Translations under genes and position numbers: made by a program | Shown: piece by piece, positions 21,240 through 26,886 of the stretch | How positions within the stretch are numbered: the first letter of the stretch is position 1 | Layout of the letters: the number at the start of each line of letters is the position of its first letter | Sequence record: MZ648215.1 | From: Escherichia phage vB_EcoP_IMEP24 | Length of the DNA stretch: 39,577 nucleotides | Reading direction: 5' to 3' (one strand) | The notes under the pieces: generated by a model | Told to the model about the DNA's origin: nothing | Database searches by the model: none | What the model saw: only the letters and a program-made list of their open reading frames with translations

Positions 21240-21262
21240 ACTAAACTATCACTATAGGGAGA
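21240..21262 (+). promoter_or_regulatory. Phage RNAP promoter (phi10-like, full consensus)
   Basis: ctaaactatcactatagggaga; +1 G at 21257; transcript 5' end can form AGGGA/TCCCT stem. Confidence 0.9.
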
Positions 21263-22539: not shown

Positions 22540-22545
22540 TTGAAA

Positions 22546-22582
22546 CCCCTTGGGTGCCTTCGGGTGCTTGAGGGGTTTTTTT
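22546..22582 (+). terminator. Rho-independent terminator (Tphi equivalent)
   Basis: CCCCTTGGGTGCC-TTCG-GGTGCTTGAGGGG stem (13 bp incl. G.U pairs, tetraloop) followed by T7 run; resembles T7 Tphi. Confidence 0.9.
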
Positions 22583-22603: not shown

Positions 22604-23170
22604 ATGGCTCAATACATTCCACTGAATTCTAACGATGACTTAGACGCCATCAACGATATGTTAGCAGCTATCGGTGAACCAGCAGTCCTACAGCTTGACG
22701 AGGGGAACGCTGACGTCTCGAACGCTCAACGTATCCTGCATCGTGTCAATCGTCAGGTCCAAGCTAAAGGCTGGAACTTTAACATCAACGAAGCTGCTGT
22801 CCTGACACCTGATGTCCAAGACAATAGGATTCGATTCTTGCCGTCATACCTTCGTGTAATGACCGCTGGGGCCACCAGCTACTACAGCAACATGGGTGGA
22901 TACCTGTACGACCTGTCCACTCAGTCAACCACTTTCACCGACCCCATCACGGTAGAGCTTGTGGAGATGAAGCCATTCTCCGAGATGCCTGTGGTCTTCA
23001 GGGACTACATCGTCACTAAAGCTAGCCGTGAGTTCAACGCTAAGTTCTTCGGTAGCCCAGAGTCAGAGCTATACCTTCGTGAGCAGGAAGCAGAACTCTA
23101 TCAGCAGGTTATGGAGTACGAGATGGACACTGGTCGCTACAACATGATGTCTGACATCGGGAGGGACTAA
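22604..23170 (+). CDS. Tail tubular protein A (T7 gene 11)
   Basis: IGEPxV, ANAxRILxxxNRQxQxxGWxFNI, YIVTKASRxFN, FFGxPE, MEYEMD match T7 gp11. Confidence 0.92.
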   Translation: MAQYIPLNSNDDLDAINDMLAAIGEPAVLQLDEGNADVSNAQRILHRVNRQVQAKGWNFNINEAAVLTPDVQDNRIRFLPSYLRVMTAGATSYYSNMGGYLYDLSTQSTTFTDPITVELVEMKPFSEMPVVFRDYIVTKASREFNAKFFGSPESELYLREQEAELYQQVMEYEMDTGRYNMMSDIGRD

Positions 23171-23397
23171 TGGCTAGTCACAACCTGAAGATTCACCGCC
23201 AGCACTTTGGTCCGGTACAGCTAGGTCTAAAGACAGCAGAGCTGAGACTTAACGACCGGGACTTTAAGGTTGGCGATTGGCTTATCCTGAATGAGTGGGA
23301 CAACGGGTATACTGGACAACAGGTAGCGCGTAAGGTTGTCCACATTGCTGACGTTGGTGACATCGCTGAAGGATACGTCCTAATGAGTATGATTTAA
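23170..23397 (+). CDS. DUF3850/ASCH-like small protein (75 aa)
   Basis: HxLKIxxxxFxxVxxGxKTxExRxNDRDFKVGDWLILNEW pattern recalled for DUF3850; start overlaps gene 11 stop (TAATG); RBS gggaggg. Confidence 0.6.
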   Translation: MASHNLKIHRQHFGPVQLGLKTAELRLNDRDFKVGDWLILNEWDNGYTGQQVARKVVHIADVGDIAEGYVLMSMI

Positions 23398-23406
23398 GGA
23401 GGGCCT

Positions 23407-25764
23407 ATGCCGCTTATCACACAAAGCATAAAAAATCTTAAAGGTGGCATTAGCCAGCAGCCTGATATACTGAGGTTCTCAGACCAAGGCGAGGCACAGG
23501 TTAACTGCTGGTCATCCGAGAGTGATGGCCTCCAGAAGCGCCCACCTACAGTCTTCAAGCGACGTCTTAACATCGACGTTGGGAGTAACCCTAAGTTCCA
23601 CCTGATTAACCGTGACGAGCATGAGCAGTATTACATCGTGTTCAATGGGTCCAACATTCAGGTAGTTGACTTGAGTGGCAATCAATACTCAGTGTCAGGT
23701 GCGGTAGACTACGTTAAGTCCTCCAACCCACGAGATGACATCCGTGTCGTTACCGTGGCAGACTATACGTTCGTCGTTAACCGTAAGGTTGTCGTCAAAG
23801 GTGGAAGCGAGAAGTCACACTCTGGTTATAACCGCAAAGCACGAGCTTTAATTAACCTGCGTGGTGGACAGTATGGTCGAACCCTTAAGGTGGGAATCAA
23901 CGGTGGAGTTAAGGTCTCGCATAAGCTACCAGCAGGTAATGATGCCGAGAATGACCCTCCTAAGGTGGATGCTCAGGCCATCGGTGCAGCTCTGAGAGAC
24001 CTTCTTGTTGCTGCCTATCCTACCTTCACGTTTGACCTTGGGTCTGGCTTCCTGCTAATCACAGCTCCTTCAGGGACAGACATTAACTCAGTGGAGACGG
24101 AGGATGGCTACGCTAACCAGCTAATAAGCCCAGTCCTAGACACTGTGCAGACAATCTCTAAACTACCTCTTGCAGCTCCTAATGGGTATATCATTAAGAT
24201 TCAAGGTGAGACAAACAGTAGCGCCGATGAATACTACGTGATGTATGACTCCAACACTAAGACGTGGAAGGAGACAGTGGAGCCGGGAGTTGTCACTGGG
24301 TTCGATGTCACCACAATGCCACATGCTCTGGTCAGACAGTCTGATGGCTCCTTTGAGTTCAAGACTCTGGATTGGTCCAAGCGTGGTGCTGGTAACGATG
24401 ACACAAACCCTATGCCTAGCTTCGTGGATGCTGCGATTAATGATGTGTTCTTCTACAGGAACAGACTTGGGTTCTTGTCAGGTGAGAACGTGATCATGAG
24501 CCGTTCAGCTAGCTACTTTGCGTTCTTCCCTAAGAGTGTGGCGACACTGAGCGATGATGACCCTATTGATGTAGCTGTAAGTCACCCTCGTATCTCAATC
24601 CTTAAGTACGCCGTTCCGTTTAGCGAGCAGCTACTACTTTGGTCGGATGAGGTTCAGTTCGTGATGACAAGCTCTGGGGTCCTTACCTCGAAGTCTATCC
24701 AGCTTGATGTAGGCTCAGAGTTTGCCTTAGGTGATAATGCCAGACCGTTCGCTGTAGGACGCTCAGTCTTCTTCTCAGCTCCTCGTGGGTCATTCACCAG
24801 CATTAAGCGATACTTCGCTGTAGCTGATGTGTCTGATGTGAAGGATGCCGATGATACAACTGGTCATGTATTGTCCTACATCCCTAACGGGGTGTTTGAT
24901 ATTCAAGGTACAGGGACTGAGAACTACATCTGCGTCAACTCTACAGGTGCATACAACAGAATCTACATCTACAAGTTCTTGTTTAAGGACGGCGTACAGC
25001 TTCAAGCCTCTTGGTCGCACTGGGAGTTCCCTATAGCTGATAAGATTCTGGCGTCTGCGTCGATTGGCTCTACCATGTTCATTGTTCGTCAGCACCAAGG
25101 TGGTGTGGACCTTGAGCACCTTAAGTTCATCAAGGAGGCAACTGACTTTCCATTAGAGCCGTATAGACTCCACGTTGACTCCAAGGTGTCTATGGTAATA
25201 CCAATTGGCTCATATAATGCTGACACCTATAAGACTACGGTTGACATTGGTGCTGCTTATGGTGGCAACGCTCCGTCTCCCGGTCGGTACTATCTGATTG
25301 ACAGTCAGGGTGCTTATTTGGACCTTGGGGAATTAACCAGTATATCTACTGTGGTTGTCCTCAACGGCGATTGGTCAGGACGCACAGTGTTCATCGGAAG
25401 GGCGTATCTGATGTCCTACAAGTTCTCACGGTTCCTGATTAAGATTGAAGACGATAGTGGTACTCAGTCTGAAGACACTGGCCGTCTACAGCTTCGTCGG
25501 GCTTGGGTAAACTACAAAGACACTGGCGCTCTGAGACTCATTGTCAGAAACGGTGAGCGGGAGTTCGTGAACACCTTTAACGGGTACACCCTTGGTCAGC
25601 AAACCATCGGGACTACCAACATTGGGGATGGACAATATCGCTTCGCTATGAATGGCAACGCATTAACCACGAGTCTAACCTTAGAGTCAGACTATCCTAC
25701 CCCAGTGTCCATCGTTGGGTGTGGCTGGGAGGCGTCATACGCTAAGAAAGCTCGTTCCGTCTAA
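23407..25764 (+). CDS. Tail tubular protein B (T7 gene 12)
   Basis: QSIKNLKGGISQQPDILR, WSSExxGLQKRPP, HLINRDEHEQYY, VTVADYTFVVNR, GRLQLRRAWVNY, GCGWE; collinear with T7 gp12. Confidence 0.97.
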   Translation: MPLITQSIKNLKGGISQQPDILRFSDQGEAQVNCWSSESDGLQKRPPTVFKRRLNIDVGSNPKFHLINRDEHEQYYIVFNGSNIQVVDLSGNQYSVSGAVDYVKSSNPRDDIRVVTVADYTFVVNRKVVVKGGSEKSHSGYNRKARALINLRGGQYGRTLKVGINGGVKVSHKLPAGNDAENDPPKVDAQAIGAALRDLLVAAYPTFTFDLGSGFLLITAPSGTDINSVETEDGYANQLISPVLDTVQTISKLPLAAPNGYIIKIQGETNSSADEYYVMYDSNTKTWKETVEPGVVTGFDVTTMPHALVRQSDGSFEFKTLDWSKRGAGNDDTNPMPSFVDAAINDVFFYRNRLGFLSGENVIMSRSASYFAFFPKSVATLSDDDPIDVAVSHPRISILKYAVPFSEQLLLWSDEVQFVMTSSGVLTSKSIQLDVGSEFALGDNARPFAVGRSVFFSAPRGSFTSIKRYFAVADVSDVKDADDTTGHVLSYIPNGVFDIQGTGTENYICVNSTGAYNRIYIYKFLFKDGVQLQASWSHWEFPIADKILASASIGSTMFIVRQHQGGVDLEHLKFIKEATDFPLEPYRLHVDSKVSMVIPIGSYNADTYKTTVDIGAAYGGNAPSPGRYYLIDSQGAYLDLGELTSISTVVVLNGDWSGRTVFIGRAYLMSYKFSRFLIKIEDDSGTQSEDTGRLQLRRAWVNYKDTGALRLIVRNGEREFVNTFNGYTLGQQTIGTTNIGDGQYRFAMNGNALTTSLTLESDYPTPVSIVGCGWEASYAKKARSV

Positions 25765-25788: not shown

Positions 25789-25811
25789 CCTTAACTATCA
25801 CTATAGGGACT
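25789..25811 (+). promoter_or_regulatory. Phage RNAP promoter (phi13-like), inside a 12-bp inverted repeat
   Basis: ccttaactatcactatagggac; +1 G at 25806; flanked by AAGGGCCTATAG (25772-25783) and CTATAGGCCCTT (25810-25821). Confidence 0.85.
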
Positions 25812-25840: not shown

Positions 25841-26320
25841 ATGTATATTCGTAAGGCTACAGATGTAGACGTTTGGTACGCTGCTGCACAACTTACAGAT
25901 GACGACTTAAAGGAGTGTAAAGCCAACTATGGGACCACTGAAGGTCTCACTGAAAGGCTGAAAGCACACCTAACGTCTTCATCTGTGGTTTTAACTAATG
26001 CTGTTGGAGAGATTTACGCCTATGGTGGTAACCAAGGTGACAACGTTTGGTTCCTGACGACCAGAATGACCGAGCGTCTCACACCTGAAGGTAAGCGAGA
26101 GTTCCGTGAGAGAATCATGGAGTATCGTGACAAGATGATGGAGGACTATCCGGTCCTATGGAACTACGTATGGGAAGGCAGTGAAGCACACATTAGGTTT
26201 CTCAAGTCAATAGGCGCTAAGTTCCACGACGATAAGTGGACCAGAAGCCCAGTGACTGGAGAAGTATTCATTCTATTCACTATCTCTAAGGAGGACGTAT
26301 GTGTGAACCAATTTCAATAG
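25841..26320 (+). CDS. Internal virion protein A (gene 13 position)
   Basis: ORF between tail tubular B and gp14 homolog; positional call; RBS aaggag. Confidence 0.6.
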   Translation: MYIRKATDVDVWYAAAQLTDDDLKECKANYGTTEGLTERLKAHLTSSSVVLTNAVGEIYAYGGNQGDNVWFLTTRMTERLTPEGKREFRERIMEYRDKMMEDYPVLWNYVWEGSEAHIRFLKSIGAKFHDDKWTRSPVTGEVFILFTISKEDVCVNQFQ

Positions 26321-26886
26321 GCATGGGCGTAATGTCTGTAGCCGGGGCCACTATGTCCGCATCCCAACAGGCTAAGGCTGAAGGCGCTGCTATTGATGCT
26401 CAGAACCGACAGGCTCAGGAGATGATTAAGCAGATGAACTACTCTGACGCCAACCTGAGGATGCAGGAGCGAGACCTGAAGGAGCAGCAGATGGCTGAAC
26501 TGACAGAGACCACGCTCAACGGTATCCGCAATCAGGGTATGGTCCGAGCTGCGGTGGCTGAGTCCGGTCTGGAAGGTAACTCTATGGACAGGATTGAACG
26601 TCAGGTCGAAGGAGATACAGTCAAGGAGCGAGCAGGGATTACCGAAAGTTACAACCGCGACTATGCGGCTATCTTCGGGAACCGTATCGCCAACATTGAG
26701 AACACCAAGTCTGCTATCCGTGGTCAGGGTAAAATTATCAAGACCAGCCCACTGGCCCATGCACTTAATGTTGCTAACGCCGGGATGCAAGGTTACGCCG
26801 CTGGTAAGTCAATGTCTAAGACTTCAGGCTCTGGTGGTGCTGCACCAATTAGTGCTGCTAAAGGCACACCGACAGGCCATAGATAA
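26299..26886 (+). CDS. Internal virion protein B (T7 gene 14)
   Basis: MC start, SMDRIxRxxEG, ESYNRDY, AAKGTxTGxR C-terminus parallel T7 gp14. Confidence 0.85.
   Translation: MCEPISIGMGVMSVAGATMSASQQAKAEGAAIDAQNRQAQEMIKQMNYSDANLRMQERDLKEQQMAELTETTLNGIRNQGMVRAAVAESGLEGNSMDRIERQVEGDTVKERAGITESYNRDYAAIFGNRIANIENTKSAIRGQGKIIKTSPLAHALNVANAGMQGYAAGKSMSKTSGSGGAAPISAAKGTPTGHR

Follow-up and report, generated by a model that had tools for sequence, protein, structure and literature searches.

A 75-residue DUF3850/ASCH-fold accessory gene between tail genes 11 and 12 of Escherichia phage vB_EcoP_IMEP24

A DUF3850 gene at the gene 11/12 junction

In phage T7, the tail tubular genes 11 and 12 are adjacent, parted by a 23-bp spacer and nothing else. 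In Escherichia phage vB_EcoP_IMEP24 (MZ648215.1; the whole stretch of 39,577 nucleotides analysed here is called the window), a Kayfunavirus (Autographiviridae, Studiervirinae), a 75-residue open reading frame (ORF) lies between the two genes. Its ATG overlaps the TAA of gene 11 (TAATG), its own stop is the TAA at 23395-23397, and the predicted protein opens with MASHNLKIHRQHFGPVQLGLKTAELRLNDRDFKVGDWLILNEW... A first-pass annotation of the sequence had noted this overlap, pointed to the adjacency of the two genes in T7, and suggested from a residue pattern that the protein is DUF3850/ASCH-like. The pattern is present, and both the overlap and the T7 comparison hold. The features discussed below are collected in Table 1.

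Profile searches gave a clear family assignment. The protein matches Pfam DUF3850 (PF12961) at E=1.9e-19, with 70.1 bits against a gathering cut-off of 22.9, over profile positions 2-76 of 77. It also matches ASCH (PF04266, PUA-like clan) at E=1.4e-5, with 26.2 bits against a cut-off of 21.2, over profile positions 2-61 of 103 only. With both scores above threshold, the first-pass observation and its family guess were therefore right, and a solved homologue (PDB 3IUW) and a fold search agree with them. PHROG 986 ('RNA-binding protein') was matched at E=2.8e-35, and a search of NCBIfam with the protein returned no useful match. The window holds a single DUF3850 copy.

The ORF is a true protein-coding gene under purifying selection. 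Over 14 homologous copies from related genomes, the mean ratio of nonsynonymous to synonymous polymorphism (pN/pS) is 0.165, and the variable sites fall 11, 12 and 40 at codon positions 1, 2 and 3. As the sense frame explains this codon-position pattern, we treated a 56-residue antisense ORF (23193-23363) as incidental. We also considered and rejected an RNA element at this site: an Rfam scan of the whole window gave zero matches, and promoter and terminator sites are not in excess beyond the T-phi terminator. Recent foreign origin is likewise unsupported by composition, the G+C fraction of the ORF being 0.487 versus 0.499 for the window.

The ORF could in principle be the N-terminus of a longer gene 12. 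We rejected this reading, as the ORF ends at its own TAA, and a separate Shine-Dalgarno sequence and start codon (ATG) serve gene 12. Synteny points the same way: in the relatives K1F and T7, genes 11 and 12 adjoin without the ORF, and gene 12 begins at the same Met. We did observe that in the window (23170-23412) the ORF and gene 12 share a frame, parted by the TAA and nine bases (…SMI*GGPMPL…), and readthrough of the stop codon would join the two proteins. In locus L014, the two are out of frame, so programmed readthrough is unlikely and the shared frame in the window is probably coincidence.

Proteins 96-100% identical to this one are encoded at the same position in many GenBank records, under the labels 'hypothetical protein', 'unknown product' (EcoDS1), 'RNA-binding protein' and 'DUF3850 domain-containing protein'. 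They include EcoDS1 (ACF15818), PE3-1, ST31, LM33_P1 and vB_EcoP_FFK3, which carry the same gene in the same 237-bp cassette. The gene and its family assignment are thus already in public annotation, and the window provides one more copy. What we add is the exact anatomy of the cassette, the recognition of K1F as a natural precise knock-out, and a specific biochemical hypothesis centred on Lys21/Glu24. That the ORF is a DUF3850/ASCH gene carried on a cassette is, in our judgement, virtually certain.

Table 1. Features at and around the gene 11/12 junction (window coordinates)
Feature	Position	Strand	Basis or remark
Phage RNA-polymerase promoter, phi10 type	21240..21262	+	23/23 match to the promoter annotated before EcoDS1 gene 10
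T-phi/TE-type terminator between genes 10 and 11	22543..22578	+	identical to the EcoDS1 terminator; 17-bp stem, then T run
Gene 11, tail tubular protein A, 188 aa	22604..23170	+	Pfam Tube PF17212, E=3.6e-46; PHROG 446
Shine-Dalgarno for the ORF, GGGAGGGA	23159..23166	+	within gene 11, in the codons for its final Gly-Arg-Asp
DUF3850/ASCH-fold accessory gene, 75 aa, 8.5 kDa, pI 6.4	23170..23397	+	ORF, profile searches, fold, selection
237-bp cassette, present in the window, missing in K1F	23170..23406	+	alignment; edges ambiguous by a 3-nt ATG repeat
ASCH octapeptide G-x-K-x-x-E-x-R, then DUF3850-specific N-D-R; codons 19-30, GLKTAELRLNDR	23224..23259	+	conservation, hhalign
Shine-Dalgarno for gene 12, AAGGAGGG	23396..23403	+	read from the sequence; overlaps the ORF stop codon; serves the gene 12 ATG at 23407
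Gene 12, tail tubular protein B / nozzle, 785 aa	23407..25764	+	Pfam Phage_nozzle PF25675, 1091 bits
Phage promoter phi13, start of the next transcription unit	25789..25811	+	exact match to EcoDS1 phi13
Promoter-consensus matches	2527, 6061, 7747, 8709, 10830, 13381, 17432, 20253, 21240, 25789, 33068, 38795	+	consensus match

Anatomy and history of the cassette

Aligned with K1F, the window shows a clean 237-bp indel that runs from ATG to ATG. This cassette is also missing in T7, and the first-pass description of the gene as an accessory insertion in a structural operon is borne out. The end of gene 11 differs with the state of the junction: it reads GGT CGA GAC in insert-free relatives of the spacer type versus GGG AGG/AGA GAC in every insert-bearing genome and in K1F and ZG49. 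This synonymous recoding creates the Shine-Dalgarno sequence of the ORF. Together, the TAATG overlap and this Shine-Dalgarno sequence suggest that translation of the ORF is coupled to that of gene 11. By promoter scan and Pfam search, the cassette has neither a promoter nor a mobility gene of its own; of the nuclease domains expected in a homing endonuclease or self-mobile insert (HNH, Endonuclease VII, GIY-YIG or LAGLIDADG) it encodes none, and only DUF3850 and ASCH match. The cassette thus displays how a promoterless gene is threaded into an essential operon, the upstream gene being recoded to supply a ribosome-binding site and the downstream gene retaining its own.

When the annotated EcoDS1 promoters and terminator were used to probe the window, the elements fell in the same order as in T7: phi10, gene 10, T-phi, gene 11, gene 12, phi13. 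The phi10-type promoter is predicted to drive gene 10 and, by readthrough, gene 11, the ORF and gene 12. As no phage promoter was seen with these probes between the T-phi-type terminator (22543-22578) and phi13 (25789), the ORF would be co-transcribed with genes 11 and 12 in a unit reached by readthrough of T-phi. Lying downstream of phi10 with only the leaky T-phi intervening, it has the layout of a class III (late) gene of the T7 group, and this arrangement of promoters and terminator supports the late expression that had been predicted for it.

To place the cassette within the genus, we surveyed the junction in 28 Kayfunavirus-level sequences: the window, EcoDS1, K1F, Kosakonia Kc166A and 24 viral-contig loci. 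Three states were found. In the spacer state (10/28), which includes loci matching Citrobacter SH3/SH4 and Cronobacter Dev2/GW1-type genomes, the last codons of gene 11 are GGT CGA GAC TAA, and 11-13 nt of spacer, taggaggtgat, separate it from gene 12. In the insert state (16/28), gene 11 ends GGG AGG GAC TAA, encoding the same Gly-Arg-Asp; two of these loci, L014 and L025, still have ggaggtgat/ggaggtgct just before gene 12, the same as in the spacer of insert-free relatives. The overlap state (2/28) is that of K1F, the type phage of the genus, and ZG49, which have the recoded, insert-type end of gene 11 and lack both ORF and spacer. Genes 11 and 12 of K1F overlap (TAATG), and the K1F genome has no DUF3850 copy elsewhere.

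If the K1F state were ancestral, the cassette would be a recent gain in the window. We rejected this possibility. K1F and ZG49 keep the recoded gene 11 end, the ancestral spacer is gone, and in neighbour-joining trees of both gene 11 and the first 900 nt of gene 12 the two phages nest within the insert-bearing E. coli clade; these observations together argue that loss of the cassette is secondary. The sequences are most economically explained by insertion of the cassette into a spacer-type junction, followed by its loss from K1F-type phages through a deletion that ran precisely from ATG to ATG. As K1F has lost the cassette, the gene is dispensable. The accessory character proposed in the first-pass annotation thus stands, with the qualification that absence within the genus, as in K1F, is a secondary loss and not the ancestral state.

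Insert-bearing genomes also occur on deep branches of the trees, interleaved with spacer-state genomes, which points to recombinational mosaicism. The encoded proteins are 66.7% (Kosakonia Kc166A), 85% (L014) and 45% (L025) identical to that of the window. Public records show the same three states: in a spread sample of 60 of the 212 matching GenBank records, 41 have the insert, 8 are of the K1F type, 6 are of the spacer type and 5 could not be assigned, and in the insert-bearing records the two-piece matches always span exactly 401+237 bp. Overall, some three quarters of related records have the cassette. Outside the genus, the gap between genes 11 and 12 is 8-35 bp in 54 of 56 T7-group loci, and no DUF3850 gene lies within 3.5 kb of gene 11 in any of the 56. 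The other two loci have an unrelated Endonuclease_7 (PF02945) ORF at the junction (L051:4070-4400 and L061:3429-3806), and in Hafnia phage Ca/yong1 and Enterobacter phage B1 an extra endonuclease ORF lies directly 3' of the 75-residue ORF. Inserts of another kind have therefore entered this junction elsewhere in the phage group, and co-conversion by homing endonucleases is a plausible route by which the cassette spread.

These inserts raise the possibility that the gene is hitch-hiking cargo of little benefit, carried along because the junction is a landing site for homing endonucleases and flanking markers are co-converted. The endonuclease ORFs at or beside the junction in both the T7-group loci and the Hafnia and Enterobacter phages are what such an account would expect, as is the mosaicism of the flank trees. 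However, the gene is under clear purifying selection (the pN/pS given above), deep Kayfunavirus branches have kept it at 45-100% identity, gene 11 having been recoded to supply its Shine-Dalgarno sequence, and the window has no endonuclease at the junction. We consider mere hitch-hiking improbable.

Fold, conserved residues and family context

An AlphaFold2 model built from 150 homologues (predicted local distance difference test score, 97.8) shows a five-strand barrel with one helix. An exhaustive profile search found 16,166 clusters (50% identity) at E<=0.001, and conservation was assessed in the 150 top-ranking representatives (39-59% identity to the query). Five residues, K21, E24, R26, D29 and R30, are invariant in 150 of 150, and H4, K7, N28, G35, D36, E42 and G49 are conserved in at least 98%. 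The ASCH signature G-x-K-x-x-[E/T/S]-x-R (PMC9599836) is found as G19-L-K21-T-A-E24-L-R26, followed by the N-D-R that is specific to DUF3850. The size typical of ASCH proteins (~110 aa, with C-terminal helical elements) is not reached: the protein has 75 residues and, in the model, no helices after strand 2. It is a minimal ASCH/PUA-like beta-barrel. The first-pass annotation had called this a predicted RNA-binding fold; the ASCH/PUA-like fold stands, and RNA binding is a prediction at the level of the family only. Unlike a typical basic RNA-binding protein, this one is near neutral (pI 6.4; family median, 6.5).

One variant of the gene departs from the invariant pattern. At the same site in L025 (4067-4291; apparently Citrobacter phage CR44b) is a 74-residue version, 45% identical, that scores 26.6 bits, barely above the Pfam threshold. 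There GIKTCDLRPSIPE replaces GLKTAELRLNDRD, so that Glu24 becomes Asp and the N-D-R is gone. The CR44b protein retains the fold (template modelling score 0.93, BFVD), and the variant may be functionally diverged or decaying.

The nearest solved structure, PDB 3IUW (Enterococcus faecalis NP_814290, deposited as 'Activating signal cointegrator'), is a structural-genomics DUF3850 structure from a bacterial genome; it supplies a fold for the ORF and no mechanism. Activity has been assigned to more distant ASCH proteins. YqfB, the N4-acetylcytidine (ac4C) amidohydrolase of E. coli, uses Lys21, Thr24, Arg26 and Glu74 for catalysis (PMC9599836), and its structures are PDB 1TE7, 9KYF and 9KYH. YqfB has 103 residues, Thr24, and a helical insert with Glu74, whereas the 75-residue protein has Glu24 and no such insert, and the two are 16-17% identical. 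In hhalign, its G19, K21, T22, E24 and R26 fall on G19, K21, T22, T24 and R26 of YqfB; on sequence alone the score is low (probability 19%, E=0.0012), but the alignment agrees with the structural match. The YqfB-type catalytic set is thus incomplete in the phage protein, as Lys21 and Arg26 align, Glu takes the place of Thr24, and there is no region corresponding to Glu74.

A second comparison is with the Glu-type ASCH members: T. thermophilus TthASCH (2DP9), human EOLA1 and the ASCH domain of TRIP4 are reported tRNA ac4C erasers. Their catalytic pair (GKER) is present here as K21 and E24, invariant family-wide. In a 2026 preprint, all 19 ASCH proteins assayed strip ac4C34 from E. coli tRNA in vitro, and the Lys and Glu of the octapeptide are essential in Glu-type members. 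None of those 19 is a DUF3850 member. Unlike the phage protein, the Glu-type proteins have ~120-160 residues with extra helices, and none is viral or DUF3850. In the literature, where seven papers name DUF3850, we found no experiment on any protein of the family.

The genomic context of the family is different from that seen in the window. A phage database held 489 records with a homologue, the closest being the Kayfunavirus copies at the same site. The more distant homologues that were inspected are not in tail operons; where inspected, their neighbours were a primase; P2 gene A with a methyltransferase and ParB; T1-type early genes; and a single-stranded DNA-binding protein with a resolvase. 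DUF3850 proteins of other phages (P2-like, T1-like, Kagunavirus, Listeria and Enterococcus phages) have the same invariant residues and come from early, replication or nin regions, often as fusions, unlike the stand-alone copy of the window, which is embedded in a late structural operon. In a Pfam census covering 74 viral loci (120 non-redundant neighbour proteins), the families were those of replication, recombination and the nin region; there were no virion proteins, no GNAT acetyltransferase or defence gene, and no recurrent partner. Fusions in the 150 homologues were mostly to lambdoid variable tails (DUF551, 12/150), with single cases of a dATP/dGTP pyrophosphohydrolase and helix-turn-helix domains; neither the fusion partners nor the neighbour genes gave a consistent functional partner. 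Phage proteins often carry a ParB-CTPase-DUF3850 fusion, and prophage regions are enriched in such fusions (ParB-DUF3850 paper).

As the family lies elsewhere in early and replication clusters, the tail-operon position is atypical and peculiar to the Kayfunavirus lineage. It probably reflects a tolerated insertion site and not a function in the tail. The position itself hints at a structural accessory that would aid assembly of gp11 and gp12 or decorate the tail; we regard such a role as very improbable.

A candidate function for the 75-residue protein

By analogy with the characterized ASCH proteins, we tentatively favour, with less than even confidence, a reading in which the product is a cytoplasmic, stand-alone ASCH-type enzyme or reader of an N4-acetylcytidine-like base that works through Lys21/Glu24. 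The protein would act alone, in the cytoplasm and outside the virion, as a small amidohydrolase of the ASCH type or as a base-flipping reader. The pocket formed by the invariant Lys21/Glu24 (and Arg26) would engage the modified base, whether this is part of a host tRNA or occurs as free nucleoside. In E. coli, ac4C34 is carried by elongator tRNA-Met. The benefit to the phage would be conditional and not essential.

Several considerations weigh against this proposal. Activity is extrapolated from longer (~110 aa) ASCH proteins, and the assayed proteins include no DUF3850 or phage ASCH member. The match to the ASCH profile stops at position 61 of 103, Glu74 of YqfB has no counterpart, and the hhalign score to YqfB is as weak as noted above. 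The family elsewhere adjoins replication, recombination, Dam-methylase and ParB genes and is fused to ParB-CTPase domains, so DNA or modified DNA fits as a ligand as well as RNA does. The CR44b-type L025 protein, without N-D-R and with Asp for Glu24, has nevertheless retained the fold. Finally, it is not clear what a lytic phage would gain from late erasure or salvage of ac4C. The most specific form of the proposal, an active minimal 75-residue ASCH amidohydrolase that, late in infection, erases ac4C34 of host elongator tRNA-Met or reverses an acetylation-based host toxin or defence, strikes us as improbable. If it were true, loss of ac4C34 from tRNA-Met would alter AUG/AUA decoding or the fate of the tRNA, and DUF3850, with more than 16,000 clusters and reported enrichment in phages and prophages, would be a widespread viral family of RNA-modification erasers.

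The barrel might instead be a non-catalytic reader that binds a specific RNA or a modified RNA or DNA base, as PUA, YTH, EVE and SRA domains do. Such a protein would perform no chemistry; it would be a small regulator or shield, with phage transcripts and replicating or packaged DNA among its conceivable targets. But strict invariance falls on precisely those Lys, Glu and Arg residues that are catalytic in ASCH proteins, and with a near-neutral pI of 6.4 and only 75 residues the protein would offer little electrostatic surface for nucleic acid. Moreover, ASCH proteins of the YqfB type bound no nucleic acid in electrophoretic mobility-shift assays (PMC9599836). We hold a purely binding role to be less likely than not.

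A role in counter-defence overlaps with both the enzymatic and the reader accounts. Here the protein would neutralize a host immunity or toxin system. It might, for instance, undo a GNAT-type acetylation on a nucleic-acid base, or hide from a PUA-type modification sensor the ligand that it detects. Its presence and absence within one genus, at a junction that holds other inserts, has the look of such a gene; an ASCH protein is encoded in nearly all (PIN)-GNAT-EVE operons (PMC7641849), and anti-defence roles have been proposed in the ParB-DUF3850 paper too. However, PADLOC gave no significant match (best E=0.0073, 14.4 bits, 34 residues), the 120 neighbour proteins include no GNAT or defence gene, and predicted late expression would be ill-timed against most early-acting defences. 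A paper reporting a screen of accessory genes also makes no mention of ASCH, PUA, K1F or tail tubular genes. We judge counter-defence unlikely.

Whichever role applies, DUF3850 is a very large family of uncharacterized function, for which the stand-alone 75-residue copy is a clean test case. K1F and ZG49, with a precise 237-bp deletion at the site, are natural, isogenic-like knock-outs.

Beyond the junction, phages that align with the window at ~94% identity over ~90% of its first 25 kb include Hafnia phage yong1, P762, ZH4 and vB_EcoP_F. Gene 12 is followed by gp13. In the window (25841-26886), gene 13 runs straight into gene 14, while EcoDS1 (L001:5420-6501) has a gene 13.5 between them, identified as Endonuclease VII in the Hafnia phage Ca paper; this is a further accessory presence/absence difference between the two genomes in the structural region. 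In the K1F record NC_007456 (L171:12921-15690), the DNA polymerase gene is annotated as a join of two segments with an HNH endonuclease ORF between them, an insertion that resembles an intron or intein. Among the GenBank matches, MT350292 (Enterococcus phage EFA-1) and PV615262 (Acinetobacter phage vB_Aba_01KA) are 95-99% identical to coliphage Kayfunaviruses in the gene 11/12 region, and OR786095 (Staphylococcus phage MBBL139) matches part of gene 11 at 86%. These three are named for Gram-positive or Acinetobacter hosts, and the host assignments appear doubtful. Lastly, the Kayfunavirus promoter consensus (…TAAACTATCACTATAGG…) has twelve matches in the window, all on the + strand, which outline a transcription map of the whole stretch.
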